Shown here piece after piece: positions 5,629 through 48,250 of a stretch of DNA of 64,000 bases (the first letter of the stretch is position 1; every line of letters starts with the position of its first letter). Where the stretch lies: positions 32,979 to 96,978 of IMG/VR virus record IMGVR_UViG_2788500332_000006. One strand, 5' to 3'. The notes under the pieces were generated by a model. That model did not search any database. It was not told the origin of the DNA and saw only the letters and a program-made list of their open reading frames with translations. The DNA comes from a virus. Its lineage: Duplodnaviria > Caudoviricetes. The position numbers were made by a program, and so were the translations under genes.

Positions 5629-5675
5629 TCTCACTTTCCACCCCCCGCAATTATGCACCCATGGAGAGCAAAATC

Positions 5676-6581
5676 ATGAATGCCCTCACCCCGATTCTGT
5701 CCGCCTCCTCCACCCTCGCCACCCGCGCGATGATCGTCTCCTTGCGCATCTCGCAATGGTCCGGCCGGCGGCTCGACCGCGAGGTCACCAAGGAGGTGAA
5801 CGACCAGCACGGTGCCGCCTCGGACGCCGGCCGCTACAACAAGCTGCTGCTGCCGAAGGAAGCCCTCGAGGATATCGAGCGGATCGTCAGCGAAACCCGC
5901 AACGAATTCCTCAAGCGCACGCTGCCGTGGATGCAGGACGGTAGCCGCATTATGGCCGCCGACGCCTACCTCTCCCATATGGCCTGGCTCCGATCGCAGT
6001 CGGCAAAGTTCGACGCGGCCGTCGACCAGTTCATTGCCCAGTATCCCGGCTATGTCGCTGCCGCCGCTGCTCGCCTCAATGGCATGTTCAAGGCGGCTGA
6101 CTATCCCGAGGCGGAAGAGCTGCGCGCCAAGTTTGCGATGGAGTGCAAGGTTCTCCCGGTCCCGACCTCGGACGACTTCCGTGTCGCCATCTCCGACGCA
6201 CAGGCCGAGCGCATCCGCTCCGATATCGAACAGCAGGTCGGCGAGGCGACGCGCGCCGCCGTGCGCAACATCTTCGAGCGCATCGCCGAACTGGCGGAGC
6301 GCATGGTCAACCGCCTCAACGCCTACAAGCCCGCCACCAAGCCCGGCGAGCGGTCGGAAGGTGTCTTCCGGGACTCGCTGGTCGAGAACGTCCGCGACTT
6401 GATTGCCGTGCTGCCTGCGCTCGACATCACCGGCGATCCGCGCCTCGCCGACCTGGCGGAGCGGATGAAGGTGCTCGCCGAGCACGATGCCAGCGTGCTC
6501 CGCGAAGACGCCGGCAAGCGCCGCGACGTTGCCAACGAGGCGCAGGCCATCCTCGACCAGATCGGCGATTTCCTTGCGTGA
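5676..6581 (+). CDS. DUF3150-like protein
   Basis: IVSLRISQWSGRR ... NKLLLPKEAL ... FIAQYP ... LRAKF pattern; lies upstream of an AAA/VWA pair as is usual for this family; start after the GGAGA leader. Confidence 0.65.
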   Translation: MNALTPILSASSTLATRAMIVSLRISQWSGRRLDREVTKEVNDQHGAASDAGRYNKLLLPKEALEDIERIVSETRNEFLKRTLPWMQDGSRIMAADAYLSHMAWLRSQSAKFDAAVDQFIAQYPGYVAAAAARLNGMFKAADYPEAEELRAKFAMECKVLPVPTSDDFRVAISDAQAERIRSDIEQQVGEATRAAVRNIFERIAELAERMVNRLNAYKPATKPGERSEGVFRDSLVENVRDLIAVLPALDITGDPRLADLAERMKVLAEHDASVLREDAGKRRDVANEAQAILDQIGDFLA

Positions 6582-6594
6582 AGGAGGCGGGCCG

Positions 6595-7005
6595 GTGGCA
6601 ACGCCGCCCCGAACCACCGTGGCAACGTTCCTCCTCATCCCCGTCATCGGGGAGATACAGCCCTACTACGCCCCGCTGCTCGGCGTGGCGTTCAACTCCA
6701 TCTCGCAGGCGATCACCCGGTTCTTCGACGAGCCGTTCGAGCATGTGTTTGTCCTCTATGGCGGGCACCCGCGCGACATGTTCGTCGGCGAGACGTCGTC
6801 CATCAACGGGCGGCATATCCGCAATGTCAGGGCCACCGACATCTACCGCGCCAACTTTGTGCATTCCCAATACCATCACGTCTCTTGGATGCCCGGCGAA
6901 ATTCTGATGCCAGACTTCAGATACACCAGGCGGGAAATCCTTGAATCCGCGCCGGCGATCTGTGGCCCTGCCGTGCTGTTTCCCGATACCATCGTTTGGC
7001 GCTAA
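6595..7005 (+). CDS. Hypothetical protein (DUF3846-like)
   Basis: AAGGAGG RBS and GTG; EHVFVL..DMFVGE..RNVRATDIY..ICGPAVLF pattern. Confidence 0.55.
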   Translation: MATPPRTTVATFLLIPVIGEIQPYYAPLLGVAFNSISQAITRFFDEPFEHVFVLYGGHPRDMFVGETSSINGRHIRNVRATDIYRANFVHSQYHHVSWMPGEILMPDFRYTRREILESAPAICGPAVLFPDTIVWR

Positions 7006-7047: not shown

Positions 7048-8034
7048 ATGAACCTGCAGACCGCAGCGCAGGCGCTCAACGCCTTTCTCGACGCCGACAT
7101 CCCCGTCATGATGTGGGGCCCGCCCGGTGTCGGCAAGTCGTCCATCGGCAGGGACATCGTGGCCGAACGGAACTGGGGTCTGGTCGACTTCCGCGCCTCC
7201 ACCCGCGATCCGGTCGCCCTCATGGGCCTGCCCGACCTCACCGCCGACACCACCAAGTGGAAGGTTCCCGACGAGTTCCCGCAGCCCGACCGCGACGGTG
7301 CCGAAGGCATCCTGTTCCTCGACGAGATCAACGCCGCCGCGCCCTCGATGCAGGCCGCCATGTTCGGGCTGGTGCTCGATCGCCGCGTTGGCGATTACCA
7401 GCTCCCGCCGGGCTGGCGCGTCGTGGCCGCCGGCAACCGCCAGTCCGACCGTGCCGCCGCGCAGCGCATGCCGTCGGCGCTCGCAAACCGGTTCGCGCAC
7501 ATCGATGTCGACCCGGATGTCGACACTACCGTTCACCACTTCAACAAGATCGGAGTCGACCCGATCGTCGTCGCCTTCCTGCGCTGGCGGCCGGCCCTGT
7601 TGCTCGACATGAAGAATGATCAGCTCCGCGCGTTCCCGACGCCGCGGGCGTGGGAGCAGGTCGGCAAGGTCGTCCAGCAGCCGTCTCCGCTGCGGCTGGC
7701 TCTCATTGCCGGCGTCGTCGGCGACGGCGCCGCCGCCGAGCTCGAGGGCTTCATCCGCGTCTACCAAGGACTGCCGTCGCTCGATCTGGTGCTGAGCAAT
7801 CCGAGCGGCGCCAAGGTGCCCGAGGACTCGTCGGCGCGCTTCGCCATAAGCTCGGGCCTCGCCCGCAAGGTGACCGACAAGACCATCGGCAACGCCATGA
7901 TCTACATGCAGCGCCTGCCCCGAGAGTTCGAGATCCTGTTCATGACGGACGCCGTTCGGCGCGACAGCAAGCTCTCGCACACGCAGGCCTTCGTCGACTG
8001 GACGGTTCGGAATCAGGACGTGGTGTTCGGATGA
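7048..8034 (+). CDS. MoxR-type AAA+ ATPase
   Basis: Walker A GPPGVGKS, Walker B LFLDE, sensor VAAGN, ALANRF Arg finger, PTPRAW. Confidence 0.92.
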   Translation: MNLQTAAQALNAFLDADIPVMMWGPPGVGKSSIGRDIVAERNWGLVDFRASTRDPVALMGLPDLTADTTKWKVPDEFPQPDRDGAEGILFLDEINAAAPSMQAAMFGLVLDRRVGDYQLPPGWRVVAAGNRQSDRAAAQRMPSALANRFAHIDVDPDVDTTVHHFNKIGVDPIVVAFLRWRPALLLDMKNDQLRAFPTPRAWEQVGKVVQQPSPLRLALIAGVVGDGAAAELEGFIRVYQGLPSLDLVLSNPSGAKVPEDSSARFAISSGLARKVTDKTIGNAMIYMQRLPREFEILFMTDAVRRDSKLSHTQAFVDWTVRNQDVVFG

Positions 8035-8378
8035 GCGTCGCCATCGTTTGGATCGCCGGCCCGATCGGTTACGCAAAGACGCTTGTCGAGGGCGGCCAGT
8101 CATTCCGCTGGTCCTTCATCGCCGGCGACGGCCTCGGCTGTATCCGGCGGTACACCCTGGCATTCGAGACGAAGACCCGGGAGTTCCGGGTCATCGCGCC
8201 AGATCGCAACGGCTGGGAGCAGGCGCATGCCGACCTGCTAACCAACCTGTATCGGCCGATCTCCATCCTCCGGTCCGACCTGCCGAAAGGGAAGATCCTC
8301 GACGCCCTGCGCGGGATGCTCACCGATCGCGACCTTTCGATAGTGTCCGCGGCCTCCCTCCTGAGAGCAGCATCATGA
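8031..8378 (+). CDS. Array paralogue 1 (unknown family)
   Basis: IAGP, YTLAFETKTREF, LRGMLTDRDLSIVSAASL; ATGA overlap with the ATPase stop. Confidence 0.8.
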   Translation: MSVAIVWIAGPIGYAKTLVEGGQSFRWSFIAGDGLGCIRRYTLAFETKTREFRVIAPDRNGWEQAHADLLTNLYRPISILRSDLPKGKILDALRGMLTDRDLSIVSAASLLRAAS

Positions 8379-8710
8379 GACAAGTCATCGATATCGACCG
8401 GCGCGGATCATACCGAGGCTATTCGGCTCTCAACTTCGTCTTCGTCGTCACTTTCATCAACGGAGATTCCGCTGAATACGCGCTCCTTTACGATGCTGAG
8501 GAGCGAAATTTCCGTGCGGAAAAACAGGGCCACCGTCCCAAAGATCGAATCCGCTTGGCATGGTTGAAACGCCAGGGGAAGCAGCCCTTCACGATCAAGG
8601 TTCGGTTGGCAGACCACCTCAAGACCCTCCTGACTCGAGAGGAGATGGCAGCATGCGCGGCGATGTCTCTGGAGGGGCCAAAAAGGAATTCAAGATGGCC
8701 GAGATTCTGA
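8375..8710 (+). CDS. Array paralogue 2
   Basis: YALLYDAEERNF, LKTLLTREEMAACAAMSL; ATGA overlap. Confidence 0.8.
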   Translation: MRQVIDIDRRGSYRGYSALNFVFVVTFINGDSAEYALLYDAEERNFRAEKQGHRPKDRIRLAWLKRQGKQPFTIKVRLADHLKTLLTREEMAACAAMSLEGPKRNSRWPRF

Positions 8711-9006
8711 AAATCGAAGGGCCGGTCAGCCGCGAGGATGAATGGGGCTCGACCATCTTCGAGTTCCACGTCACCTACGAAAGCGGGCGTGTCCTCCGGT
8801 GGCTGCTGGAGTTCAGCCACAACAATCGGACGTTCTCAACCCGGCCAGCCGGTTCACCCGATCTCCCATCGGTCTTCCCCAAGATGCTGCTCGCCTTGGG
8901 CTATCGACCGATAGATATCCGGTCCGGCGGTCTTCGCAACCACTTGCGCAGCATGCTTTCCCCCGAGGACATCGCCATTTGCGCGCAGGCCTCGCTCAGG
9001 AGGTGA
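8695..9006 (+). CDS. Array paralogue 3
   Basis: IEGP, WLLEFSHNNRTF, LRSMLSPEDIAICAQASL. Confidence 0.8.
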   Translation: MAEILKIEGPVSREDEWGSTIFEFHVTYESGRVLRWLLEFSHNNRTFSTRPAGSPDLPSVFPKMLLALGYRPIDIRSGGLRNHLRSMLSPEDIAICAQASLRR

Positions 9007-9009
9007 ACC

Positions 9010-9351
9010 ATGCCGAGGATCAAAGCCGTCTGGGGGCCGAGAAAAACGGAGGAAGGTCGCGCCCGGATCACTTGGTGGTTCTCCGGCATGAAAGAGGATG
9101 GAGAACTTTGCGAGTGGAAGCTGGTCTACTTCGCCGACACCCGCCGGTTCACCTGTCGCCGCGTCATGTCCATGGTCGCAAAGGAACGGGCTGGAAAACT
9201 TGAGAGAAAGGATCTCTTCCGGATTCCGTCGGCCAACGGCGATGCGATCGAAGAGGGCTTCGTCACCGATATCCTGAAGAAGCGTCTCACCCCGGAGCAT
9301 TTGGCCAAATGCGCCAAACTCTCCCTGACTTATGGGAGGGCACATGGCTGA
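9010..9351 (+). CDS. Array paralogue 4
   Basis: VWGP, WKLVYFADTRRF, LKKRLTPEHLAKCAKLSL; AGGAGG RBS. Confidence 0.85.
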   Translation: MPRIKAVWGPRKTEEGRARITWWFSGMKEDGELCEWKLVYFADTRRFTCRRVMSMVAKERAGKLERKDLFRIPSANGDAIEEGFVTDILKKRLTPEHLAKCAKLSLTYGRAHG

Positions 9352-9709
9352 CTTCCGCAAAGTGCTGGGGCCGTTCGGCCGGGAGGTCGTGAAGGTCGGC
9401 GACGTGCGCATCACGTGGGGCTTCATCGGCATCCTCGCCGACTATGAGACGGCCCACTGGACGCTGACCTATCAGGCGGAGCATCGAAACTTCTATGTCC
9501 GCAGGAGTGAACAAGTGTCTCTACGCGTGCGCGACGAAAGTGGCCTGATCCACTATCGCGCGGCCGGCCTCCCTATCCACCTGGACATGTTCATCAAGAG
9601 CGACAACCGCATTGTCGCGAGCGGGACCATCACCAACGTGCTCCGCTCCCGGCTCTCGCCGGAAGACATCGCGCTCTGCGCCCGACTTTCCATGAAGGGA
9701 ACATCATGA
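9344..9709 (+). CDS. Array paralogue 5
   Basis: VLGP, WTLTYQAEHRNF, LRSRLSPEDIALCARLSM; GGAGG RBS. Confidence 0.85.
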   Translation: MADFRKVLGPFGREVVKVGDVRITWGFIGILADYETAHWTLTYQAEHRNFYVRRSEQVSLRVRDESGLIHYRAAGLPIHLDMFIKSDNRIVASGTITNVLRSRLSPEDIALCARLSMKGTS

Positions 9710-10869
9710 TGATCGCCGAGGACAAGATACTCGCCGCCCGCACGGCTCTCATGTGGGACCACCCGTTCTTCGGGGCACTCGCTGTCCGGCTCACCACCAT
9801 CGACGCGACCGATGACCCGCGCATCGACACGATGGCAACCGACGGCCGTAACCTGTTCTTCGACCGGAAGTTCGTCGACGGGTTGAAGAAGCCGGAGCTG
9901 GTGTTCGTGCTGGCCCACGAGGTCATGCACAACGCGCTCGAGCACCACATCCGCCGGCAGACACGCGATCCACGGCGCTGGAACAAGGCATGCGACTACG
10001 CCATCAATGGCGAGCTCGCCGATACCAAGATCGGGACCATGCCGAAGGGCGGCCTCATCGATCCCGCCTACACCGGCCTCTCGGCGGAAGAAATCTATCG
10101 CCTTCTGCCGGAAGAGAATGGCGGCGGCGCGGATGGTGGGCAAGGCGGACAGGACCCGGGCGGGTGCGGCGCCGTGCTCGACGCGGCGCCGGCGCATGAT
10201 GAGGCCGCCCTCGCAGAGGCCCGCGCGGAGATGCAGACGGCCGTCAGGCAGGCGGCGAACATAGCCAAGGCCGCCAATGCCGGCAGCCTGCCGGCGGGCA
10301 TCCAGCGCCTCGTGGACGAGCTTCTGAAGCCGAAGGTGGACTGGCGGTCGGTGCTGCGCCGCTTCGTCGACGAGTCCACCACACGCGACTTCGCCTGGTC
10401 CCGGCCTAACCGCCGGCTGGTGCCGCATGGGGTGATCACCCCCGGCACAGTCTCCATCGGCGTCTCGCATATCGTGATCGCCGTCGACACCTCCGGCTCG
10501 ATCGACGCCGAGATCCTCCGCGCCTTCGCTGCCGAGATCAACGGCGCCTTCTGCGAGGGCGCGGTGGACCGCATCACCGTGATCTATGCCGACGCCGCGG
10601 TTCAGCATGTCGAGGAGTTCGAGACCGGCGACGAGCTCATGCTCCATCCGGCCGGCGGCGGCGGCACCGCCTTCTCCGATACCTTCCGCAGGATCGAGCG
10701 GGACTATCCCGGCGCCCGCGCCTGCATCTATCTGACCGACCTCTTCGTCAGCGACTTCGGCCGGGAGCCATCCATGCCCGTCTTGTGGGGCGTCTACGGC
10801 GACCCGCGCGCCTTCGACCACCTCGCCGCCACTGTGCCGTTCGGAGAGCCGATCAGCATCGCTCCCTGA
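9706..10869 (+). CDS. DUF2201-type putative Zn-metallopeptidase fused to a VWA domain
   Basis: TMATDG, HEVMH (HExxH), WNKACDYAIN; MIDAS VDTSGS, GGGGT, YLTD. Confidence 0.9.
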   Translation: MMIAEDKILAARTALMWDHPFFGALAVRLTTIDATDDPRIDTMATDGRNLFFDRKFVDGLKKPELVFVLAHEVMHNALEHHIRRQTRDPRRWNKACDYAINGELADTKIGTMPKGGLIDPAYTGLSAEEIYRLLPEENGGGADGGQGGQDPGGCGAVLDAAPAHDEAALAEARAEMQTAVRQAANIAKAANAGSLPAGIQRLVDELLKPKVDWRSVLRRFVDESTTRDFAWSRPNRRLVPHGVITPGTVSIGVSHIVIAVDTSGSIDAEILRAFAAEINGAFCEGAVDRITVIYADAAVQHVEEFETGDELMLHPAGGGGTAFSDTFRRIERDYPGARACIYLTDLFVSDFGREPSMPVLWGVYGDPRAFDHLAATVPFGEPISIAP

Positions 10870-10911
10870 CCACACCACCAATCGCCGCTCATGGCACCAA
10901 GGAGACCTCAC

Positions 10912-11307
10912 ATGTCCGCGATCCTGACCAAGCTGGAATTCGACGCCTTTCTCGAAGAGAACCGGCAGGCACCTTCCCTCGAAATCGCCGAACCGACCTG
11001 GCGCGAGGCCGGCCCCGATCACGCCCCGCGCGCCAAGCTCAAAGGCATCTGGACTATCGGCGGTCTGAGCCTGCACGTGGTGGCTCTTGAATGCCGGCTC
11101 GTGGCCCCGAGCGACTTCGATGAGGAAACCGGCGATGCCAAAACGCTGCCTTGGGACGCCCCGGGCGGCCTGATCGATTTCGCCCTCGGCGTTGAGGGCT
11201 TCGACATCGGAGAGCTCTGGTCCGCCCATGGCATGGAGGGCCACGCCGAGACCGCCATCATCGACGGCCGGCATTACCTGATCTTCGCCTCGCCCTTCTG
11301 CACCTAA
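10912..11307 (+). CDS. Hypothetical protein
   Basis: Leader-motif variant and AAGGAGA RBS. Confidence 0.75.
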   Translation: MSAILTKLEFDAFLEENRQAPSLEIAEPTWREAGPDHAPRAKLKGIWTIGGLSLHVVALECRLVAPSDFDEETGDAKTLPWDAPGGLIDFALGVEGFDIGELWSAHGMEGHAETAIIDGRHYLIFASPFCT

Positions 11308-11371: not shown

Positions 11372-11719
11372 ATGTTCAAGCGTTCACTCTTCCTTGGCAT
11401 AGCGCTGGCGATGACAGTGGGATCGTCGGTCGCAGCTGATGATCCAGTTTTCGAGTTTGACTGGCTGGCGATATTCCGAACCGCCAACAAGTTTTGCGTT
11501 GGACAGAACTTCTCGGCAGAAGGCATCGACTTGCGCATGAAGCAGATTGGTAGGCGCCTCGGCTGGTCCCCGCAAAAACTCGCCGACGAAACTCTGTCTC
11601 GTGAGATCACCACTGAGATTGACTTGCGCGTTAGTCAAACAGCCTTTTGCAACACTGCGAGAATGGGACGTCGGCAATACGGTGACGACTATCTCCGAAG
11701 AGTAGGCGTCATCTACTGA
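11372..11719 (+). CDS. Putative exported protein (moron-like)
   Basis: Signal peptide MFKRSLFLGIALAMTVGSSVAA; two Cys; visibly more AT-rich codons. Confidence 0.7.
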   Translation: MFKRSLFLGIALAMTVGSSVAADDPVFEFDWLAIFRTANKFCVGQNFSAEGIDLRMKQIGRRLGWSPQKLADETLSREITTEIDLRVSQTAFCNTARMGRRQYGDDYLRRVGVIY

Positions 11720-12030: not shown

Positions 12031-12524
12031 GATTCACGAGGAAGCAGCGCTACGGCCCCTACGAGGACACGTCGCGCAAGCGGGCGGCTCTCGCCAGGAA
12101 GCAAAGGCTCGAGCGCGAAAGGCTGCCGCTGCTGGCCGAGATGATCGCCGAGCAGCAGCCCGATGCGGACACCGTGATGGCGGAGCGGGCGGTGAAGTGG
12201 ACCATTTGGGAGCAGGAGACACGTGACAGAAGGGCCGCGAACTGGCGACGCGCCCGCGCCCAGCTATTCGCCTATGGAGACAACATCCGGCGAACGCTCA
12301 CCCGCCTGTGGAACTCCGCACCGTACCCGGCCACGCCGGAATACCTGCTCGACATGCTCCACCAGTTCGACCGCGGCAACCTCGACCCTGATAACCCGCC
12401 CTGGGTTTACCGAGGCCCCGGCCTGAAGACCGTCGACTTCACCGACATAGTCAACCGAGCGCGCGCCCGCCAAGGGCTGCCGCCTCTCGACGCCCCCGCC
12501 ACTCATGGCACCAATGGAGACTGA
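12027..12524 (+). CDS. Conserved phage protein upstream of the DUF4942 methyltransferase
   Basis: TSRKRAALARKQRLERERLPLLAEMIAEQQP ... WRRARAQL; recalled as a usual neighbour of DUF4942 MTases (unverified). Confidence 0.7.
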   Translation: MRFTRKQRYGPYEDTSRKRAALARKQRLERERLPLLAEMIAEQQPDADTVMAERAVKWTIWEQETRDRRAANWRRARAQLFAYGDNIRRTLTRLWNSAPYPATPEYLLDMLHQFDRGNLDPDNPPWVYRGPGLKTVDFTDIVNRARARQGLPPLDAPATHGTNGD

Positions 12525-12525
12525 C

Positions 12526-14070
12526 GTGAACGCCCTTGTCCCACGCCCTTCCATCGAACAGATCGTCTCCTTCCGAGACCAGGCGATCTCCCGGTACGAG
12601 CAGGCATTCGAGAAGATCGCCGAGGCTGACGCCGCGGTTCGCGAGGCTGGCGCCTTATGGGAAGCCGCATCTCCGGGAAAGTCCGGCGAATGGTCGAGTT
12701 CGACCGACGAGATCAAGAACTTCCTCAACGCAGTCCGGCTGCCCGACCGCGATCAATATCTGCGCACGGCACGACGTCTGATCGACGTGACGGTCTGGGC
12801 GCACGTCATCGACATCGCCGGCATCGAACCGCTGATGGACAGTCAGGCGAAGCAGGAACTGCGTGACCAGATGCGCTATATCCCCGAGCGCGTCGACCGC
12901 CACGGTGAGCTCATCAATCAGGACGAAATCGACAAGACGCTGCCGCCGGTCACCGTTGACAATGTCATGGCGACGCTTGAGCGCTTCCGTGCCGACGCCG
13001 AACTGATCTTCCGCCGCGGCATCGTCAATGCCTTCACCAAGCTGGACCGCCGCTTCAGATCGCACGACGGTTTCAAGATCGGTTCGCGCGTCATCGTGAA
13101 CTACCTCATCCGCGACGGCCACATCTACAGCTCAAGCTCCCGCGCGGACATGCTCACCGATATTGAGCGCACCTTTCTCGTACTCGACGGGAAAACGGAG
13201 CGCGCCAAGTATGGCCGCATCGTCGACGAGCTCGATCGAGCGAACCCGTCGTCCTACTTCAATCGGCAGGCCTTCGAGGTGGAGAGCGACTATTTCAAGA
13301 TCCGGTGCTTCAAAAACGGCAACGCGCACCTCTGGATGACGAGAAAGGATCTGGTGAAGAAGGTGAACTTGATCCTCGCCGACCACTACGGCGAGGTTAT
13401 CGGCGACGGCATGACGAAGGAGGACGATCCTCTTTCCCCTGACAAGGCGAAGACGACGCCGGCCCGCTACTTCGGCTTCTTCCCGACGCCGAAGGCAGCC
13501 GCCGACGAACTGCTGTCGGGCGCTCGGCTCCTTCGCTCGGCCGACCAGCCGCCACTGCGCGTTCTCGAACCGTCGGCCGGCACCGGCAACCTGGCGCGGC
13601 GCTGCTTCTGCCACCTGGAGGACTACCCGGAGTACCATCGCCAGCGCTACGGTAGCGAGTACCGCTACGACAACAAGGTCGACTGCATCGAGATCCAGCC
13701 CCACCTCGCAATGCAGCTCGAAGCCGAGGGCATCTACAACCGGGTCACCTGCGGCGACTTCCTGCAGATGCGCCCCGATCCGGCCAACCTCTATGACGTC
13801 GTGGTGATGAACCCGCCGTTCGACCGGGAGCGCGACATCGACCACGTCGTCCATGCGCTCCAGTTTCTGAAGCCCGACGGCTATCTGACGGCCATCATGT
13901 CGGCCGGCACAGAGTTTCGCGAGACCAGGAAGGCCATTGCCTTCCGCGAGATGATGGAGAAGATGCACGCCAAGTGGTCCGACCTGCCGGCCGGCTCGTT
14001 CGCCGAGGTCGGGACCTATGTCAACACCTGCATCGTCCGCGTCTACAAGGACGGGAGGCGCACCTATTGA
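12526..14070 (+). CDS. DUF4942-domain class I SAM-dependent (amino) DNA methyltransferase
   Basis: FRSHDGFKIGSRVI and YFKIRCFKNGNAHL (DUF4942); FFPTP, VLEPSAGTG, VMNPPF; GTG start after GGAGA. Confidence 0.88.
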   Translation: MNALVPRPSIEQIVSFRDQAISRYEQAFEKIAEADAAVREAGALWEAASPGKSGEWSSSTDEIKNFLNAVRLPDRDQYLRTARRLIDVTVWAHVIDIAGIEPLMDSQAKQELRDQMRYIPERVDRHGELINQDEIDKTLPPVTVDNVMATLERFRADAELIFRRGIVNAFTKLDRRFRSHDGFKIGSRVIVNYLIRDGHIYSSSSRADMLTDIERTFLVLDGKTERAKYGRIVDELDRANPSSYFNRQAFEVESDYFKIRCFKNGNAHLWMTRKDLVKKVNLILADHYGEVIGDGMTKEDDPLSPDKAKTTPARYFGFFPTPKAAADELLSGARLLRSADQPPLRVLEPSAGTGNLARRCFCHLEDYPEYHRQRYGSEYRYDNKVDCIEIQPHLAMQLEAEGIYNRVTCGDFLQMRPDPANLYDVVVMNPPFDRERDIDHVVHALQFLKPDGYLTAIMSAGTEFRETRKAIAFREMMEKMHAKWSDLPAGSFAEVGTYVNTCIVRVYKDGRRTY

Positions 14071-18451: not shown

Positions 18452-19335
18452 TATTCCGCCGCCCTCCAGAATATTTCGAGCTGCTCGCGCTCGGCGTCGA
18501 GCGCCCCCCGGCAAGCCTGATTGAGCCATAGAACCTCGGTGCGCGGCCGGGCGCCGTCGGCATAGGTGTCGAGCTCGAGGCGGTGCCAGCCGGCAAGCGT
18601 GTCGTCATAGAGCGGGTGGGAATAGCCGGAGAGCACCACCATCCCCGACAGGCCGCGCAGCACATCGAGCAGCACCGCATGATCCTCGTCGGTCATCTCA
18701 TGGGCATACATCCGCCAGCCGAGATCGTATTTGTTGCCTTGGACGCGCGTGGCAAGGACGTAGGGCGGGTCCACGTAGTGCAGCGTCTCCGGCCTGTCAT
18801 GCTGGCGCATGACCTCAATGGCAGGCCTGCACTCGATCACCACGCCCGCCAGCCGCTCGATCAGCGCATCCATGGCGTCGGGGTAATGCGCCCAATCCAG
18901 CGCCGGCGTAGTGCCCGACCGGGAGCTATTGGCGCGAAAGCCCGTGCTCCGGTGCCCCTTGGCCGCCGAGGCATGGGCATTGCTGCCGAAGCCCATGAAT
19001 GAGCGGATGACGAGGCGGCGGGCGCGCTCGATTGGATCGTCGGTCGGCTCGTAGGCCTCGCGAAACTCCTGCCGCGCGAAGGGTGTCAGCCGTAGGAGGT
19101 CCTGCAAGCGCCGCGCCGACGGTTCGTCGCGCAGCACGCGGAACAAGGTCACGACCTCGCCGTCGAGATCATTGTAAACCTCGCCATAGGCGCGCGGCTT
19201 GCGGATGAGCACCGATGCGGCGCCGCCGAACGGCTCGACATAGGTCCGATGCGCCGGGAAATGGCTGATGATCCAGGGGGCGAGACGCCACTTGCCGCCA
19301 TGCCAGCGGAGAACGGGGCGCGTTGGGCGGTTCAC
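18451..19335 (-). CDS. Dam/D12-family DNA adenine methyltransferase
   Basis: LRWHGGKWRL, YVEPFGGAASV, EVYNDLD, YVDPPY; GTGA-coupled start. Confidence 0.92.
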   Translation of the reverse strand: MNRPTRPVLRWHGGKWRLAPWIISHFPAHRTYVEPFGGAASVLIRKPRAYGEVYNDLDGEVVTLFRVLRDEPSARRLQDLLRLTPFARQEFREAYEPTDDPIERARRLVIRSFMGFGSNAHASAAKGHRSTGFRANSSRSGTTPALDWAHYPDAMDALIERLAGVVIECRPAIEVMRQHDRPETLHYVDPPYVLATRVQGNKYDLGWRMYAHEMTDEDHAVLLDVLRGLSGMVVLSGYSHPLYDDTLAGWHRLELDTYADGARPRTEVLWLNQACRGALDAEREQLEIFWRAAE

Positions 19336-21206
19336 TCTGTCGCCTCGATTCTCTGTGGGGTATCGACCGACAGGGCAACGGTCAGAGGCTGCACCCAGAT
19401 TGGATCGCTCGACAGCATGAAGGTCTCGCCGGCCCAGGCGAGCAGCAACGTGCGCCCCATGACACCGGCCACCGCAGCGGCGGCATCCGGCGGCACGGCG
19501 TTGCCAATCCGCTCGCGCCAGGCACTGTCTGACGTTCCGTCCATCTCGAAGCCGAACCACTCGTCCGGATCGAACAGGCTTTGCAGGGCGGCGAGCTCCA
19601 GCGTCGTGAACGGCCGGTGCCAAGTCCCATCGAGCGCACGGATGACGGCGACGAGCTTGTCATTCTCGGCCGGCAGGCCGGCGCCCGGGCCGCCCTGCAA
19701 AAGCTCGCCGGGCATGTCCCGGGGATCAGCGACGCTCCAGGGGCCGTTGTTGTTCTTGGCGAAGGCCGGCACCGCGCCGCTGTGACGGCCCCAGGGCACG
19801 ACGCCGTAGTGACCCTGCGTCGAATAGCCGTCCCGGTGCTCGCCGTTGAGCGCCTTCGGCCGAGGATCGGCCACCGCGAAGGCGCCCTGGCCGGTCGTGC
19901 TGGCGCCGATGACGCTGCCGGACGGCTCGCCAAAGGCCACCACCTTGTACTTGCCGCTGCCCTCGCGGCCGGCCGGAGCCCTTGGGTCGGCCACGCAAAG
20001 CCCGCCGCCGCTTGGGTGCGTGCCGCCGGTCACCGTCTTCCCGGTATCGCCCCAGTCGTGCACATGCAGGATGTTGTGGTGGGTGGCGGGACCGAAGCCC
20101 GTCCTCGGGTCGGCTACGGCAAAGCCGCCCTGCCCGGGCGACTTGACGTTGATGACGGCACCCATCGTCTCGCCCCAGCCACGAACGCCATACTGCCCGT
20201 ATTCGCCAGCGCCGGCGGGCGCGCGGGGATCGGCGACGCTGAAGGCCCCGTTGGTCGGGCCGTTTCTGCTGGCGATCACGCCGGAGCTGTCTTCCCACCG
20301 GTTCACGCCAAGCACGCCGGCGCGCCATTGCTCGTCCGGAGCGATGCCGAAGTCCGCCAGCACGCCGCCCTCGACCTTGAGCTTGTTGAGCGAGCGCCAG
20401 TCCGAGCCGGCCTCGACGAAGGCGAGACGGACCCACGTCTTCCAGTGCAGCGCCGGCATCCGGTGCATCGGGCCGGCCCGATCGTCGCCAGGCATCGGCA
20501 GCCGATCGAGGATTTCGCCGACACCGCGCAGCCGCCGCTTCGGCGGTTCGTACAGGAACGGCGGCACCTTCTCGCGATGCCGCGCCACCATCAGGAAGCG
20601 CTTGCGGCTCTGGCCCAGCCCACCGAGTTCGCCGCAGTCGTGCGTCGTCTCCGCATAGGCATAGCCGTAGTCTTCAAAGAGAGCCTGGATCGCTCGCAGC
20701 AGCGGTCGGCCACGATTGGCGATGCGCGGCACGTTCTCGAAGAGGAAGAATTCGGCCGGGTCATCCTTGTTGGATTCTAGCGCCAGCCAGACCGCCCGAA
20801 GCGTCAGGCCGTTCAGCGCCTGATACTTCGCCGAGGCCGAGGCCTTTTCGGACAGCAAGCCGGAGAAGCCCTTGCACGGCGCCGACACGAACCAGATGTG
20901 CGGCCGCTCGTAGCCCATGGCGGCCCGGATGTCGTCCGGCGTCGCCTCGCGCCAGCCGGGCGGCGGCTCGTGGCCGTGGAACGCCCGATACTGTTCCAGC
21001 GACATCAGGTCGAGTAGCGTCCCCTTGACGCCGGCGAACCGCTCGAAGTCCCGGACACCGGCTGGGTCGACGTCGACGCCGCCGATGTTGCGGAACTTGG
21101 CGACCAGGTTTCCGACCCGCGCATTGCCCTTGCGGAAGCCCTTGGCACCAAAGCCAGAGCCGCAGCAAAGATGTCCGACGCGGACTTCTTTGACGATATC
21201 GTTCAC
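19332..21206 (-). CDS. C5-cytosine DNA methyltransferase with an internal repeat insert
   Basis: HLCCGSG, SAPCKGFS, FENVPRI, QSRKRF, IGNAVPP. Confidence 0.9.
   Translation of the reverse strand: MNDIVKEVRVGHLCCGSGFGAKGFRKGNARVGNLVAKFRNIGGVDVDPAGVRDFERFAGVKGTLLDLMSLEQYRAFHGHEPPPGWREATPDDIRAAMGYERPHIWFVSAPCKGFSGLLSEKASASAKYQALNGLTLRAVWLALESNKDDPAEFFLFENVPRIANRGRPLLRAIQALFEDYGYAYAETTHDCGELGGLGQSRKRFLMVARHREKVPPFLYEPPKRRLRGVGEILDRLPMPGDDRAGPMHRMPALHWKTWVRLAFVEAGSDWRSLNKLKVEGGVLADFGIAPDEQWRAGVLGVNRWEDSSGVIASRNGPTNGAFSVADPRAPAGAGEYGQYGVRGWGETMGAVINVKSPGQGGFAVADPRTGFGPATHHNILHVHDWGDTGKTVTGGTHPSGGGLCVADPRAPAGREGSGKYKVVAFGEPSGSVIGASTTGQGAFAVADPRPKALNGEHRDGYSTQGHYGVVPWGRHSGAVPAFAKNNNGPWSVADPRDMPGELLQGGPGAGLPAENDKLVAVIRALDGTWHRPFTTLELAALQSLFDPDEWFGFEMDGTSDSAWRERIGNAVPPDAAAAVAGVMGRTLLLAWAGETFMLSSDPIWVQPLTVALSVDTPQRIEATE
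19720..20318 (-). repeat. Five ~40-aa protein repeats ending VADPR within the C5 MTase
   Basis: GV..W.....V......G.F.VADPR unit seen five times. Confidence 0.9.
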
Positions 21207-21784
21207 AGAAATGAGTCCTGCTGGTAGGAGCGCCCCTTGTCGAAAGCGTAGGAGGGCTCGTGCATGATCCGGAGCGCGTCGAGCATGCAGAGCGCTTCGG
21301 CTTCGTCCTCGGTGTTGTAGGACCAGCCGTTTCGGTCGCAGTAGGCTTTGGCCTGCTGCTTCAGCCACTTGGACTTTTCTGGCTGCTTGGTAAGGTCCTT
21401 CGGCGCGCGGGTCTTGCCGTGCGTCTTCGACCTCCAGGTGGAGATGGCGAGCAGTTCCGGCTCCCGGAGCCCCATGACATGGCAGATGGTCTGCGCGTGC
21501 GTCGGCCAGCCGGAAGAGAACATGACCTGCTGCGCGTCGATCGCCGGTTTTCCCGGCTCACCGTGGTCGACGATGGTCATAAGCTCGATTCCGACCAGCG
21601 GGTCAGGCAGGCTGTTGAGCACCCGTCGGAAATAGGAGCTGAACTCGGCATAGGCGGCGCCGGCCGGCTGCTGCGTGAACTTCCACGTGCCATGCCGTAG
21701 GTTGCCGCCGCCGGCGAGGCAGTAGGCGAAGCCCATTGTCCTGCCTGGGTCGAAGACGAAGTAGGAGCCGGGGGCGGAGCTCAT
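21203..21784 (-). CDS. RuvC-like resolvase/nuclease
   Basis: FVFDPGRTMGFA, VGIE, ISTWRSK, EDEAEALCML. Confidence 0.75.
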   Translation of the reverse strand: MSSAPGSYFVFDPGRTMGFAYCLAGGGNLRHGTWKFTQQPAGAAYAEFSSYFRRVLNSLPDPLVGIELMTIVDHGEPGKPAIDAQQVMFSSGWPTHAQTICHVMGLREPELLAISTWRSKTHGKTRAPKDLTKQPEKSKWLKQQAKAYCDRNGWSYNTEDEAEALCMLDALRIMHEPSYAFDKGRSYQQDSFL

Positions 21785-32962: not shown

Positions 32963-33219
32963 TGCCCTATCCTCCCCTCATCCAGCGGTCGAACCAGGCG
33001 CGCTCCGCCGGCCGCCGCGACGACATTCCACCCCGGCACGACCGGATTATGCGCCGGATCGACGAGCTCAACGTCACCTGCGAGTCCGTCGTGTCCCGGG
33101 CCGGCTACTCGTTCACGACGCTCGACGATATCCGCGCCGGCCGGGTCAAGCGTGACTGCATCCTGACCGACTTCGAGATCGCACTCGATCTCCCGAAGTG
33201 GGAGGGCCGGCACACATGA
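32962..33219 (+). CDS. Hypothetical protein (possible HTH)
   Basis: TGATG coupling. Confidence 0.55.
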   Translation: MPYPPLIQRSNQARSAGRRDDIPPRHDRIMRRIDELNVTCESVVSRAGYSFTTLDDIRAGRVKRDCILTDFEIALDLPKWEGRHT

Positions 33220-42919: not shown

Positions 42920-44536
42920 TCAGAACTCCAAAATGATGATGATGCCCGGCGAACCGTTACCGCCAAAGGTGCCGTTCGCCGTGACCACGCAGGCTCCGCC
43001 GCCGCCCGCGCCGTAACCAGTCGCCGCACCTCCGCCATAGGCTCCAGTGCCACCGCCACCACCAAGGCCGCCGAATCCGAGGCCAAGCGGGCCATCTCCG
43101 CCGCTGCCGCCGTGTGACTGTTCAGAGCCGGCCACGTAATAGGAATAATCCCGTGGTCCGCCCGGCAGGTTGACCAAACCGCCACTGCCAACAACCGGAG
43201 CAATGGTGGCGCTGCCCGGCCCGCCGGAGCCGATATATGTATTGCCGCCGATTACGAGCGAGGATGCACCACCATTGTTACCGTGAGTGTTGGACACGCC
43301 GGTGCCACCAGCGCCAACCGTGGCGGCATAAGCCATACTGTCGTCAACGTCCGCCACGGCTATCGTGGCGCCGCCACCAAAACCACCATTTCCAATACCG
43401 ACGGAACTCCGGCCCTGTCCTGCACCGCCGCCGCCGCAGACGATGGCGAGCCACTTGGTGACGCCAGCGGACGGAGTGACGTTGCCGGAAGCGGTCACGA
43501 CTCGGACGTTCTTCAGGCCTCCACCAGCAAGAGCATTCTTCACGAAGGCTGTGGTGGCCAGCTTGGTGGAGACGTCTCCGGAGGCGGGGGTTGGGGCTGA
43601 GGGGGACACTGAGAAGGCCATGCTGCGGCCTGCCCGCGAAACCGAGTAGACAGTTCCCAGGGAGTCCCCTGCGTCATCAAAAGCATCGAACTGGAAGTTT
43701 GACCCGGTGTTGCCCCCATCCTCCGGCGTCGCGTTTGCACGCATAGACCACCGAGCCAGGCCATTGGTCATCCACATAACCCAGCGGTTGAGGCCCGGCG
43801 CGTCATTGACGTAGATGTCCTTGCCAGTCAGTTGGCCTGCTGCGCCATACTTCGCAGGGGCGCTCGCTGTCCCGTCGTCCTTGAACGCGGTCTTCAGGTA
43901 GTAGGAGGTCGGATCGAACAAGGCGGCCGCAGCGGCACTCGCCGCCGCCTCCGCTGCCTTGCCGGTCGCCACGCCAGCCGCCGTCGCCGCGGTATTGGCG
44001 TGCCCCTCGGCCGCGACGACCGCGCCGGCGATGCCGGCCACCGTCTCGATGTCCTCGGCGATCGGCACGAGGGCCAGCATCTGCGGCTGGATGTCCGACA
44101 GCGCCAGCACCGCGCCGGTCAACCTGTCCACCGACACCGACGAGGTCACCGGCAGCACCACGGCGCGCGCCACCTGCTCCTTGAGTTGCAGCGACATCTG
44201 CGTCTGCAGATCGATCGCCCGTTCGATGGTTTCGGCGAAATAGGCGCCCTGGTTCTCGAGGTCGATGTCCTGCATAAACGGCACGTTGAGGATCAGCGTC
44301 ACAAGGTAGCCGGCCTCATAGGCCAAGGCCGTCTTCACCGCCCCGCCGCCGCTGTCGCCGACACCGGACACCGTATAGTCGGTGCCGAGCGCCAGCGCCG
44401 TCTCGGTGCCGTCCGGCGCCGTCAGGATGACGCGGATGTGCGCCGCGTCGTAGATCCTGAATTCGTAAGGAAAACTGGTCGTCGCCCCGTTGCAGGCATA
44501 GGGGCCGGAGCGGTTCGCTTCGCTCGCAATGGTCAT
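42920..44536 (-). CDS. Tail fibre protein with Gly-rich C-terminus
   Basis: N-terminal YACNGATTSFPYEFRI..GTDYTVSG attachment domain; STKLATTAFV; GGGGAG repeats. Confidence 0.88.
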   Translation of the reverse strand: MTIASEANRSGPYACNGATTSFPYEFRIYDAAHIRVILTAPDGTETALALGTDYTVSGVGDSGGGAVKTALAYEAGYLVTLILNVPFMQDIDLENQGAYFAETIERAIDLQTQMSLQLKEQVARAVVLPVTSSVSVDRLTGAVLALSDIQPQMLALVPIAEDIETVAGIAGAVVAAEGHANTAATAAGVATGKAAEAAASAAAAALFDPTSYYLKTAFKDDGTASAPAKYGAAGQLTGKDIYVNDAPGLNRWVMWMTNGLARWSMRANATPEDGGNTGSNFQFDAFDDAGDSLGTVYSVSRAGRSMAFSVSPSAPTPASGDVSTKLATTAFVKNALAGGGLKNVRVVTASGNVTPSAGVTKWLAIVCGGGGAGQGRSSVGIGNGGFGGGATIAVADVDDSMAYAATVGAGGTGVSNTHGNNGGASSLVIGGNTYIGSGGPGSATIAPVVGSGGLVNLPGGPRDYSYYVAGSEQSHGGSGGDGPLGLGFGGLGGGGGTGAYGGGAATGYGAGGGGACVVTANGTFGGNGSPGIIIILEF

Positions 44537-44584
44537 CGGCAGGCCTCGCTGGTTTTGCGAGACCCTACCTCGCCAGGGTTTATT

Positions 44585-47500
44585 TCACCGCGCCCCGAAC
44601 ACATGGCCGATCGCCACGGCTGGCGGGGCGTCCGTCAGGAGTGCGGCGGCCATCATGGTCGATCGGACGGCCTTCGCATCGCCCCTATCGCCTGCGGATG
44701 TGGCCAGCCCGGCCCACATCGCCGCCCGCGCCGCGCTGTCCGGCGAGGCCGGCGCGGGGGCGCCGATCGGGCCGAAGCCGGCATCGCCGCCGCTTCCGGG
44801 CGCCCGCAGCACCGCCGTCTCGCGGGCGAACAGCAGGGCCGCGGCGAGGGCGCGCGACAGGTTTGCCGGGTTCGATGCGGCGGGAGAGGCCATCAGCGCC
44901 GCGACCAGGGTCCGGACGGACGCCGCCGCCTTGCCGCCCGGCGCGCGCCCCGCATCCGCCCGCCGCGCCGCGTCGTCGCCCGCCGCCACGGCCCGCGCCT
45001 CGTCGCCGGACCGGTCGAGCTGCCGGCGATAGCCGGAAAGCCACGCCGGCATGTCGGCGAGCTGCCAGCGCGCGCGCCCGATCAGCCAGCCGGCCAGGGC
45101 ATCCGCCCCGCCGTCGCCGCGTTTGGCCGCCGCCGCCCGCCGCCCGGCCATCAGGCCCGACCGGCCGGCGATCCGGTCACTGACGCCGGGGGCGAACGTG
45201 TCCCCGAGGCCGGCCGCGAAATCCGCCCCCGCCGCCGCCATCGCGCCGGCCAGCCCCGCCGCGTCGACCAGCGCGGCGGCGAGATCGCGGGCCAGCCGCT
45301 CGGCCGCCGGATCGTCCATCTCGGCCGCCGCCATCCGCTCCAGAAAATCCCCGGCGCGCAGGTCGCCGGCCGCCGCGTCGTCGATGAAGGCGGCGAGCGT
45401 TTCGAGGTCGCCGGCCCGGCCGCCCCCGGCGAAGGCGTCGCGCAGCGCCGGCTGCCCGATCAGCCGCCCGGCGTTGGCCAGCGGCTCGGACAGTTCGAGG
45501 TCGGAGAGCAGCCGGTCGACGTAGGCGTGGAAGGCGGCGAGGTCGAGACTGAGGCCGCCGCCCGCCCCGCCACCGCCTCCGGTCATGGCCGTGGCCTTGG
45601 CGAACCGGCCGGCCCGCACCGCCGCGGCGAGGTCGCCCGCGCCGGCCAGCGGATAGAAGCCGCCCTTCAGCGCGACGCCGCCGACGGTCACCGGCCGCGC
45701 CCCGACCCACGCCGGCGTCCCGCCGGTTGCCCGCCGCTCGCGCGCGGCGATCTCGCCCCGGAAGCCCTCGAGATAGTCCCACACCGCCGCGATGAAGCGG
45801 GCGTCGCGGCCGTCGAGCGCCGCCAGGATCGGCGGCACCGCCTCCGGCGCCAGCCCCGCCTCGCCGCCGGCCAGGCGCGCATGGCCGGCCTCGTTGCCGG
45901 CGTTGAGCGCGATGGCGATCATCTCCCAGCGCGACAGCGACCGCCCCAGCCCCGGCAGGAAGCGGCGCACGCCCATCGCCCGCCGCTCGTCCGCCGCGTA
46001 GGGCGCGTAGAGCGCCGCGATGTCCGCCGCCGCCCGCTGCCGGCGGCGACCGAGCGCCTGCCTCGCCGCATTGATCGACGCGACCAGCCGGCGGACCGAC
46101 GGCGCCCCGTCGCCGGCGATCTCGCGCAGCAGCTCGGCGGCGGCGCGGCCGGGATCGACGGGGCGAGCCCCCGTCCCACCCTCCGCGCCGCCCGGCGCCC
46201 GCGCCACGGCGGCCACCGCTTCGGCCACCGCCGCGCTCAGGCTTTGCCGCCCGCGCGCGTCCACCAGCGCGTCGTTGCGCCCCATGGCGTGTTCGATGTT
46301 CTCGAGGCTGGCGACCACCGCGCGGAGCTCGCCGGCCGGCAATTCGCGATAGGGCCGCCCCTCGCCGCCGGCCAGCACGGCGTCGGCAAGCGCCAGCTCG
46401 TTCTCCCGGCCGGCTGCCGTCATCGCCTTCGCGAAGGCGGCCACGGCGCCGCGCGGCGCCGGGTCGCCGGGCTTGCGGAACTCGAACCGGTCGAGGATGG
46501 CGTCGATGGCCGACCATCCGTCGATGCCCTGCGTCACCTCCGGCCGGTCCGGCCGGTCGAGACGGCGCACCGTCCGTTCCGCCGCCTGGAGATCGTCGGC
46601 GATCCGCCGCGCCTCGGCGTAGAGCGCCAGGTTGAGAAGCTGCCGGCGCCGGGCGTCGTAGAGCTTCTTGCTCCTTTCCCCCTCCTCGCCGGAGGCGGAG
46701 AGCTTCGCCGCTTCCTCGCCGGCCCGCCGCTCGGCGGCCAGGTGGCGCCGGGCGTCGACGGCGTCGCGCACCGGCGTTCCGGCCAGCGCCGCGCGGGCGA
46801 AATCCTGCGCCGCCGCCGCCGTCAGTGGCCTGTCCTCGCCGGCCGGGCCGGCCAGCGCCCGGAGCTCGGCGGCCAGCCAGTCGGCCATCCGGCCGCCATG
46901 GATGGCGGCGAGCGCCTTTTCCGGCAACGTGCCGTCGACGAGCGGGTCGCCATGGCGCTCGATCATCAGGCGGCGGGCCTCGGCGGCGATCGTCGCGCCG
47001 CGCCTCGGCGCCAGCGCCATCGCCTGGATCATCTCGTCGCCGCTCGAAAAGCCGAACAGGCCGGCCGCCTCGTCGGGGTCGACGCCGCCCTCGGCGGCAT
47101 AGGCGGTGGAGCGCCCGCGCGGCAGCGCCGCCAGCACCGCCTCGCCATAGCGCTCGACCAGGATCGGCCGCGACAGCCTGAGCACGGGCAGCGGGCGGGG
47201 CGCATCGCCCAGCCGGCGGCGGTTGGTCAGCCACTCGGTCGCCCGATAGACCGGCAGCGCGTCGATCCGCCCCTCGGCCTCGCGCGTCGCCGCCGCCAGC
47301 CCGTCGCGATACCATTTTTGGCGCGCCGCCCGCACCGGCCGCATGATCGCCTGGGTCAACCGCTCCTCGGCCTCGGCTTCCGCCGCCGCCCGCAACGCCC
47401 CGAGATCGGCCGACACCGGACCGAGATCGCCGGCCGCCCGGCGCGCTGCGGCGATTTCGGCGTCGGTGGCCAGCAGCCGGTCGAACACATCGCCCACCTC

Positions 47501-47899
47501 GGGCGCGACCGCCACACCGAGCCCGCGCATCGTCAGGTAGGCCTCGATCAGCCAGGCCCGGAAACGGCGGAACGCCAAGCGCGGCCCGGCCGGCAACGCC
47601 TTGCCGTCCAGAAGATAGGCGGCGAAGGCGCGGGCGAACCGGTCCTCGTGGTCATCGGCCTCGCCCCACCAGCGGGACAGCGCCTCGCCATCGGCTCTTG
47701 CAGCCGCATCGCCGTGATCGCCCGTAGTCGTGAGAAGTGTCAGGAACAAGCGAGCGCCATCGCGCAGGAGTCCCGGAAGATCGCCAGCAGCGAACAACCG
47801 CTTCAGCGCCCCGGCCCCTCCGGGTGCTTTGTCATCGTCAGGGCCGGGGTAAAGGCGGGGGGCCTCCTCGCCTGTCGTCCGAGGGGAACTGATCGTCAT
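44585..47899 (-). CDS. C-terminal portion of a large ejection/internal virion protein, degenerate
   Basis: HEDRFARAFAAYLLDGK..FRRFRAWL..VFDRLLATD; IAIALNAGNE; LKGGFYPL; start re-picked at ATG 47899 (GGAGA RBS). Confidence 0.7.
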   Translation of the reverse strand: MTISSPRTTGEEAPRLYPGPDDDKAPGGAGALKRLFAAGDLPGLLRDGARLFLTLLTTTGDHGDAAARADGEALSRWWGEADDHEDRFARAFAAYLLDGKALPAGPRLAFRRFRAWLIEAYLTMRGLGVAVAPEVGDVFDRLLATDAEIAAARRAAGDLGPVSADLGALRAAAEAEAEERLTQAIMRPVRAARQKWYRDGLAAATREAEGRIDALPVYRATEWLTNRRRLGDAPRPLPVLRLSRPILVERYGEAVLAALPRGRSTAYAAEGGVDPDEAAGLFGFSSGDEMIQAMALAPRRGATIAAEARRLMIERHGDPLVDGTLPEKALAAIHGGRMADWLAAELRALAGPAGEDRPLTAAAAQDFARAALAGTPVRDAVDARRHLAAERRAGEEAAKLSASGEEGERSKKLYDARRRQLLNLALYAEARRIADDLQAAERTVRRLDRPDRPEVTQGIDGWSAIDAILDRFEFRKPGDPAPRGAVAAFAKAMTAAGRENELALADAVLAGGEGRPYRELPAGELRAVVASLENIEHAMGRNDALVDARGRQSLSAAVAEAVAAVARAPGGAEGGTGARPVDPGRAAAELLREIAGDGAPSVRRLVASINAARQALGRRRQRAAADIAALYAPYAADERRAMGVRRFLPGLGRSLSRWEMIAIALNAGNEAGHARLAGGEAGLAPEAVPPILAALDGRDARFIAAVWDYLEGFRGEIAARERRATGGTPAWVGARPVTVGGVALKGGFYPLAGAGDLAAAVRAGRFAKATAMTGGGGGAGGGLSLDLAAFHAYVDRLLSDLELSEPLANAGRLIGQPALRDAFAGGGRAGDLETLAAFIDDAAAGDLRAGDFLERMAAAEMDDPAAERLARDLAAALVDAAGLAGAMAAAGADFAAGLGDTFAPGVSDRIAGRSGLMAGRRAAAAKRGDGGADALAGWLIGRARWQLADMPAWLSGYRRQLDRSGDEARAVAAGDDAARRADAGRAPGGKAAASVRTLVAALMASPAASNPANLSRALAAALLFARETAVLRAPGSGGDAGFGPIGAPAPASPDSAARAAMWAGLATSAGDRGDAKAVRSTMMAAALLTDAPPAVAIGHVFGAR

Positions 47900-48250
47900 T
47901 CTATTCTCCGACAATAGGGCGGGCAGGACCGACCAGCTTCCCGCGCATTGTGCGAGGGAAATGAAGTCGAACCTCCGAGCTTTTCGCGGGCCGTAGAGAA
48001 GGCAGGCGTCCGCCCGCTCTCTTGAGCCGATGTGGGCCGGTGCAAACGAGCTTGAGATTGGCTTTGGTCGACAGGGCGGCATTCCCCAACGGCAGGAGTG
48101 CCGTATGCTAGAGGCCGGAGGGTTTCCGCCATGGCTGGCGATGCCATCACCACCTAGCGGACCTGCGCTCGTTCGCTGGCCCTTTACGTATTCATCGCGA
48201 GTTCCGAGAAGGTTGTCCGCCATTGTCTCCTCACATCCTGAGAGAGCATA

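Follow-up and report, generated by a model that had tools for sequence, protein, structure and literature searches.

A family of small, basic proteins encoded in tandem between the genes for a MoxR-type AAA+ ATPase and a zincin-VWA protein is a candidate lineage-specific third component of this phage module, carried by temperate phages of the Rhizobiales. As far as model libraries and the literature show, both the family and its exclusive place inside the operon are undescribed. The five copies that led to it, O1 to O5 (positions 8031-9709), lie in a stretch of 64,000 nucleotides, hereafter the window, that covers positions 32,979 to 96,978 of IMG/VR record IMGVR_UViG_2788500332_000006, a provirus of 96,978 bp with a CheckV completeness of 96%. 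The phage is a Rhizobiales prophage, and related prophages were found in the genomes of Ensifer, Rhizobium, Ancylobacter, Peteryoungia and Hoeflea. We tentatively favor the reading that O1 to O5 are subfunctionalized partner subunits of the ATPase/VWA machine.

The seven genes, all on the plus strand, form an unbroken chain. The stop codon of the ATPase gene (7048-8034) overlaps the start of O1 (8031-8378, 115 amino acids) in an ATGA, and the same overlap joins O1 to O2 (8375-8710, 111 amino acids). O3 (8695-9006, 103 amino acids) overlaps O2 by 16 nucleotides, O4 (9010-9351, 113 amino acids) follows behind an AGGAGG Shine-Dalgarno sequence, and O5 (9344-9709, 121 amino acids), with GGGAGG upstream, overlaps O4 by eight nucleotides and shares an ATGA with the start of the VWA gene (9706-10869). 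From the ATPase gene to the VWA gene the junctions are therefore -4, -4, -16, +3, -8 and -4 nucleotides, with ATGA overlaps at both ends of the array. Chaining of ATPase, array and VWA gene by start/stop overlaps also occurs in five of the loci fetched for comparison (L006, L007, L010, L028 and L031; L numbers denote fetched loci). The first-pass annotation of this DNA, made from the letters and their open reading frames (ORFs), had described five consecutive ORFs of 103-121 amino acids that overlap or abut each other and their flanks, three of them hidden inside longer mis-started frames; the coordinates and junctions bear this out, and the hidden genes are O1, O2 and O3 (within 7650-8378, 8048-8710 and 8560-9006, respectively). 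All five are real genes, as judged from a G+C content of 0.63-0.82 at third codon positions (GC3) against 0.44-0.50 at second positions (GC2) and from ratios of nonsynonymous to synonymous divergence (dN/dS) of 0.16-0.36 relative to orthologues in three related prophages.

The flanking genes are clearly members of the known N4 gp24/gp25-type pair, in keeping with their earlier description as a MoxR ATPase and a VWA-metallopeptidase. The ATPase (328 amino acids) matches Pfam AAA_5/AAA and phrog_1297 (E 4e-86), its GPPGVGKS and DE motifs are conserved, and G27, G29, K30, D92 and E93 are invariant among 18 homologues. The VWA protein (387 amino acids) matches DUF2201_N (E 8e-48), DUF2201 (E 7e-20) and phrog_1314 (E 4e-96). 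Its VWA domain ends the protein, and an N-terminal zincin is the sole extra domain. Among 17 homologues the HExxH residues H71, E72 and H75 are invariant together with H80, as are D261, S263, S265, T321 and D345 of the MIDAS (metal-ion-dependent adhesion site), and a working client-binding site therefore exists in the VWA protein. In a tblastn search of phage records the ATPase was matched in 844 and the VWA protein in 552, including N4-like and jumbo phages.

O1 to O5 are diverged paralogues whose likeness goes beyond chance. In each of the ten pairs BLASTP aligns the two proteins collinearly over nearly their whole length, at E values from 2.9e-18 (O4/O5) to 0.011 (O1/O4), and a hidden Markov model (HMM) of the family scores the five copies at E 1e-16 to 1e-34 (3e-26, 1e-16, 3e-22, 1e-34 and 4.5e-32 for O1 to O5). 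The ordered skeleton that had been proposed for them is present, with GP near the N-terminus in four of the five (O2 lacks this turn), [YW]xLx[YF]x4RxF in all five, and the C-terminal L[RK]xxL[ST]...AxxS[LM]. The cysteine counted as part of that skeleton is found in O2 to O5 but is kept in only 24% of the wider family, and so is no family feature. The first-pass annotation had not recognized the family, which is indeed uncharacterized: O1 to O5 match no model in Pfam, PHROG, NCBIfam or PADLOC, no Pfam family is matched by more than two of 116 members, and when the profile was run against PDB sequences no hit fell below E 0.3.

A search by word index through 5.8 billion proteins brought up no more than 22 relatives of the family, from a handful of contigs, and an HMMER profile search of 1.84 billion representatives returned 132 clusters at E <= 0.001, about 120 of them full-length proteins of 90-150 amino acids. 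A typical member has about 110 residues and is strongly basic (median isoelectric point, pI, 10; above 8 in 96% of members); because the proteins are basic, the idea that they mimic DNA was ruled out. No fused forms appeared in a length-unrestricted profile search. Eleven long profile matches were rejected as fusions and taken as repeat artefacts, the five that were scanned being HYR_4C repeat adhesins or other repeat proteins that match many unrelated Pfam models.

Across the 116 members (O1 numbering), the conserved positions are G10, P11, W/F27, F29, W/Y41, L43, Y/F45, R50 and F52, followed by G87, L93, R/K94, L97, D/E101 (76%) and A103. Both termini are the best-conserved parts of the protein, the C-terminal motif being the most widely kept. 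An acidic residue occurs at position 100 or 101 in 94% of members, although neither position is invariant on its own, and it falls in an [ST]-P-E-[DE] motif that opens the last helix.

AlphaFold2 models of O1 (from an alignment of 23 sequences; mean predicted local distance difference test score, pLDDT, 82.5) and of O4 (116 sequences; pLDDT 83.8) agree in topology: four long antiparallel strands lead into a helical middle part of poor definition, and a short helix then precedes the long one at the C-terminus. The predicted family fold is thus a four-strand beta-meander followed by three or four helices, in which strand 2 carries WxF and strand 3 carries [WY]xLx[YF]. A helix-turn-helix reading of the C-terminal motif was rejected, as the protein ends right after the second helix and leaves no recognition helix. 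Neither model had a match above noise in the PDB (Foldseek, VIA wide), BFVD or the ESM Atlas; Foldseek gave nothing at E <= 0.001, and a feature search of the ESM Atlas gave nothing. The best structural neighbors of both models are SpoVG (2i9z; Z 5.3, root-mean-square deviation 3.9-4.0 over 72-74 residues) and Pur-alpha (3k44; Z 4.3-4.9 over 45 residues), Z scores below 8 that may reflect only a common arrangement of elements. Like the family, SpoVG and PUR repeats are small and basic and combine a four-strand antiparallel sheet with a helix. They have no counterpart to its C-terminal helix pair, however, the Pur-alpha alignments cover the sheet only (45-50 residues), and sequence similarity is lacking.

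The placement of the family links it to the ATPase/VWA pair. Similarity to the ATPase served to fetch one set of loci, and a second set was obtained, as a check free of that bias, from distant family members located by exact look-up; all were scanned with the family HMM as well as the ATPase and VWA proteins of the window. Of the distinct loci that offered enough DNA, 17 of 17 have their strong members in the slot bounded by the ATPase and VWA genes, including the loci reached only via distant members (L027, L028, L030 and L031). The number of strong copies is one in L030, two in L011 and L015, three in L013, L014 and L028, and five in the window, L006, L007 and L010. ORFs of the slot that are otherwise too divergent still keep the C-terminal motif L[RK]xxLxP[EA][DE][IL]A..[CT]..[SA][ILM], and when these are counted several loci come to about five or six copies. 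Four whole host genomes have all their matches within the one prophage locus, and 400 other sampled genomes of the same order gave no family match. Strong hits are thus confined to AAA/VWA loci, with a copy number of one to about six, the distribution that had been expected of an adaptor system.

The slot shows some further variety. ORFs not recognizable as full family members (L012:9076-9429; L013:8990-9463 and 9286-9771; L019:9264-9575; L024:8632-8916; L031:6024-6401) have the C-terminal motif in the form L..L.P.D[IL]A..[CT].A[AS][ILM]; some carry extra tails after it, and the motif may be a portable module. In L010 an Imm5_like (immunity-protein-like) gene (L010:3174-3680) lies between the last paralogue and the VWA gene, and in L028 a gene for a 270-amino-acid protein of no known family (L028:4175-4987) splits the array.

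In a maximum-likelihood tree of 64 family members the copies sort by position. Clade A, to which O1 belongs, has 13 rows (support 98/93) and is the first gene after the ATPase in 13 of the 13 loci having it. Clades E, with 15 O5-like rows, and D, with nine O4-like rows, are both widespread. The O2 clade (support 100/99) is sister to the O3 clade (98/97), and neither was seen outside the five-copy lineage. Every clade has kept a signature of its own, for example YRP..(V/I)LR.DLPKG in clade A. Clades tied to positions and bearing their own signatures suggest that the duplications are old and that the copies, clades A, D and E in particular, have lasting distinct roles.

The array has also diverged faster than its flanks. 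Nucleotide identity to L006 and L007 is 58-79% across the array (8000-9750), reaching 85% in two L007 segments, against 83-95% in the ATPase and VWA genes, and amino-acid identity is 51-86% against 85-95% for the flanking machine. The dN of the array is about two to 12 times that of the flanks, and its synonymous divergence (dS) is raised too. The array is a divergence valley between conserved flanks, which suggests recombination or a clock that runs much faster there. In GC3, too, the five genes are below the ATPase and VWA genes (0.88-0.89), which together with the higher dS hints at a history of the array unlike that of its flanks, through recombination or acquisition.

If O1 to O5 are partner subunits, they would bind the common machine physically, as adaptors rather than clients, through parts common to all copies: the GP turn, the invariant arginine after strand 3, and the C-terminal helix pair with its basic residue at 94 and acidic residue at 100 or 101. 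The specificity of each copy for its own partner or target would then reside in the clade-specific middle (residues ~55-85). Whatever is held would be remodeled by the ATPase, and the zincin domain might cut it. The arena for such activity would most likely be host take-over or counter-defense.

Several observations weigh against partner subunits. Distant ATPase/VWA pairs occur with no member beside them, in L017 and L026 (ATPase 38% and 31% identical to that of the window), in N4 gp24/gp25, in Thermus phage phiFa and on a Simplicispira plasmid; at maximum sensitivity the family HMM found nothing better than E 0.8 in these or in a T5-like and a Vequintavirus locus. The family is not needed for the core machine. 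Unrelated genes use the slot, an RNase H in phiFa besides the Imm5_like and 270-amino-acid genes of L010 and L028, and the slot may simply be tolerant of insertions. Weak members, few in number, also sit immediately outside the slot, upstream of the ATPase gene or downstream of the VWA gene. All loci with members come from a single syntenic phage lineage (ATPase identity 51-95%); the linkage therefore represents few independent events, and part of it may be gene order passed down by descent. The acidic patch also reads as an ordinary helix cap; what stands of the conserved acidic tail proposed earlier is the high frequency of D/E at 100 or 101, not an invariant acidic position. Lastly, the high pI and the faint likeness to SpoVG and Pur-alpha (Z 4.3-5.3) fit nucleic-acid binding independent of the machine.

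The same linkage and chaining would be seen if the small proteins were instead clients or cargo, that is, small basic effectors that the machine would fold, load or activate, or cut with its zincin domain, and would recognize by the C-terminal helix pair or the N-terminus as a tag. We consider this unlikely, though far from negligible. Both termini are the best-conserved parts of the family, as recognition tags would be, and the residue at 100 or 101 is a possible MIDAS ligand of the kind seen with Rubisco and CbbO (PMC4660213). In addition, zincin peptidases are reported to process small, rapidly diverging proteins beside MoxR-vWA systems (Kaur et al., PMC7159879). However, apart from the GP turn no motif resembling a cleavage site is conserved, the acidic position varies and suits a helix cap, and the presence of several distinct conserved clades per locus is more easily explained by differing specificities than by one enzyme having several substrates.

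Alternatively, the family could consist of functionally independent accessory proteins, for example nucleic-acid-binding or host-directed, that expanded in a recombination-tolerant slot of one phage lineage and owe their linkage to inherited gene order. This too seems improbable to us, but it draws on much of the evidence above: the syntenic relatedness of all member-bearing loci, the unrelated genes that use the slot in other phages, the members found outside it, and the basic character of a family whose best, though weak, structural neighbors are nucleic-acid binders. The raised dS likewise suggests cassette recombination. On the other hand, ATGA-type chaining to both flanks is kept where the ATPases are only 53-67% identical, the family holds its place while other neighbors change between loci, and no member was found away from the module in the four whole genomes or the 400 sampled ones.

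A more elaborate form of the adaptor idea, close to that of the first-pass annotation, makes the array a cassette of specificity subunits that aims one motor at several host proteins, such as defense systems, by docking through the C-terminal helix pair; phages would re-equip themselves through exchange or duplication of the cassettes that lie within the conserved flanks. The divergence valley and the variable copy number agree with this. However, the copies form old, position-specific clades, which argues against freely swappable cassettes, the cysteine is not conserved, and the acidic patch also fits a helix cap. We regard it as distinctly unlikely in this form.

Least probable, and very doubtful in our view, is that the proteins build one hetero-oligomeric assembly with each clade at a fixed position, perhaps as a ring or cap seated on the hexameric ATPase or as a scaffold for virion or replisome assembly, although position-specific clades with their own conserved signatures, chained translation that favors balanced amounts, and the fact that domains of four strands plus a helix, PUR repeats and SpoVG among them, function as dimers would all fit it. 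The proposal of Iyer et al. (2021; PMC7824862) that the jumbo-phage MoxR/zincin-vWA pair is a virion-assembly chaperone with peptidolytic processing would fit as well. A fixed assembly, however, sits poorly with copy numbers that range from one to about six among related phages; the early or accessory region that holds the module is remote from the structural genes, and the array evolves fast.

The core of the module closely resembles the N4 gp24/gp25 pair, which shares its domain order, intact Walker motifs, HExxH and MIDAS residues. The loci differ in what lies between the two genes: nothing in N4, where they are adjacent, unrelated genes in phiFa, and the paralogue array in the window. No family member is detectable in the N4 and phiFa loci even at E 10.

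A parallel to the whole module may be sought in the MoxR-vWA ternary conflict systems with a diversifying third component, VMAP or iSTAND, described by Kaur et al. (2020; PMC7159879). Like the window module, these have a conserved ATPase and vWA core and a fast-diversifying extra component. However, the third component of the ternary systems is a large multidomain VMAP or iSTAND protein, the VMAP-C domain alone having about seven strands and six to seven helices (PMC7159879), whereas that of the window is a protein of 103-121 amino acids with four strands and three to four helices. O1 to O5 do not qualify as VMAP-C or inactive STAND nucleoside triphosphatase (NTPase) domains, with no match to an NTPase or other Pfam family. 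The vWA proteins of the ternary systems carry variable C-terminal effectors, whereas the window's has an N-terminal zincin and no C-terminal effector, and the ternary systems are cellular defense loci, whereas the window module belongs to a phage. Some MoxR-vWA systems are also linked to multi-copy DUF397 genes, which encode four strands and a terminal helix (PMC7159879). DUF397 resembles the family in being a small four-strand-plus-helix domain present in several tandem copies beside MoxR-vWA genes; however, no match to it (PF04149) was found for the five copies at E 0.1 or for the 116 members at E 1, and its CxE motif in strand 2 and RDS motif at the end of strand 3 are absent from the family.

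How a VWA protein might hold a partner is illustrated by the CbbQO model, in which the VWA MIDAS grips an acidic residue of the client (PMC4660213). CbbQ/CbbO with Rubisco, NorQ/NorD and Rea1 with Rsa4 all combine a MoxR-class motor with such a grip. The window's VWA protein has an intact MIDAS, and by analogy the near-universal acidic patch of the small proteins would allow the same grip. The clients of the CbbO, NorD and Rea1 type are large enzymes or ribosome factors encoded elsewhere, whereas in the window the candidates are small paralogues inside the operon.

For a role against host defenses, the MoxR ATPase of the Vequintavirus Bas54 has been reported as needed to overcome a defense system (preprint 10.1101/2025.11.20.689424). 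Relatives of the Bas54 ATPase share only 30% identity with the window ATPase over 70% of the length, and in Bas59, also a Vequintavirus, the orthologous MoxR ATPase has no adjacent DUF2201 gene. The Bas54 protein is a lead to a counter-defense role in the window rather than support for it.

The genomic setting is suggestive in this respect. The module has its place in an early, co-oriented region, well away from the structural genes, and is followed by a gene for a DUF4942 and N6-type methyltransferase (12505-14070) and, further on in the island, by genes for a C5 cytosine methyltransferase (19332-21368, minus strand), DnaB, a primase and RecT. The two methyltransferases look like orphans and fit an establishment or anti-restriction island. 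A Simplicispira conjugative plasmid (NZ_CP027670.1, L039) carries the same set of DUF4942 methyltransferase, ATPase, DUF3150-like, VWA-like and C5 methyltransferase genes. Given an early island with orphan methyltransferases, host take-over or counter-defense would be the most likely arena for the module.

Two conserved genes lie upstream of the ATPase gene. The DUF3150-like protein encoded upstream (5661-6581, plus strand; 306 amino acids) has a weak match to Pfam DUF3150 (E 0.0048, below the cut-off), and its orthologues lie upstream of the module in 23 fetched loci, duplicates included. In L026 the DUF3150-like gene (7994-9385) lies between the ATPase and VWA genes, and on the Simplicispira plasmid (7001-7861) it adjoins the VWA-like gene. 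The true third component that is conserved in the module may be this protein of about 300 amino acids. A conserved gene of uncertain start (6595-7005, plus strand; 136 amino acids) directly precedes the ATPase gene and has orthologues in 16 loci, and its product has no match in Pfam, NCBIfam or PADLOC. It does not belong to the family (hhalign probability 1.1% against the family profile); this gene and those at 10891-11307 and 11372-11719 were considered as hidden members and rejected, at hhalign probabilities of at most 2%.

The VWA protein itself varies at its C-terminus (window 10680-10869). Member-bearing loci share an insertion of about eight residues, GD.R.FD.L.A, and a DL.V.DFG.EP stretch, and both features are missing from N4 gp25, phiFa, L017, L026 and the plasmid protein. 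From the sequence comparison, they may reflect lineage history or a docking site.

Elsewhere in the window, a stretch at 43832-48271 has 75% G+C against a window average of about 63%, with open frames of over 1200 codons on either strand. Neither long frame (43832-47917 on the plus strand and 44585-48271 on the minus strand) matches Pfam, and a gene for a Gly_rich_2 protein (42920-44536, minus strand) adjoins it.

While the flanking pair was already known, a third component of this type is new for a MoxR-vWA system, and it is found in a phage. Our literature search found no experimentally established function for the phage MoxR/zincin-VWA pair, the virion-assembly proposal being the only suggestion. 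A family found only inside the operon thus provides the first concrete candidate partners for the pair, in one lineage, and with its chaining to both genes, positional paralogues and faster evolution it makes the question of the machine's targets directly testable. Should the small proteins prove to be independent nucleic-acid binders, the finding would reduce to a new family of small phage proteins. If the partners target host defenses, they would represent a new type of ATP-driven counter-defense. If the array does act as a cassette of specificity subunits, this would reveal a general logic for gp24/gp25-type pairs, in which lineage-specific small partners are encoded in the slot between the two genes.

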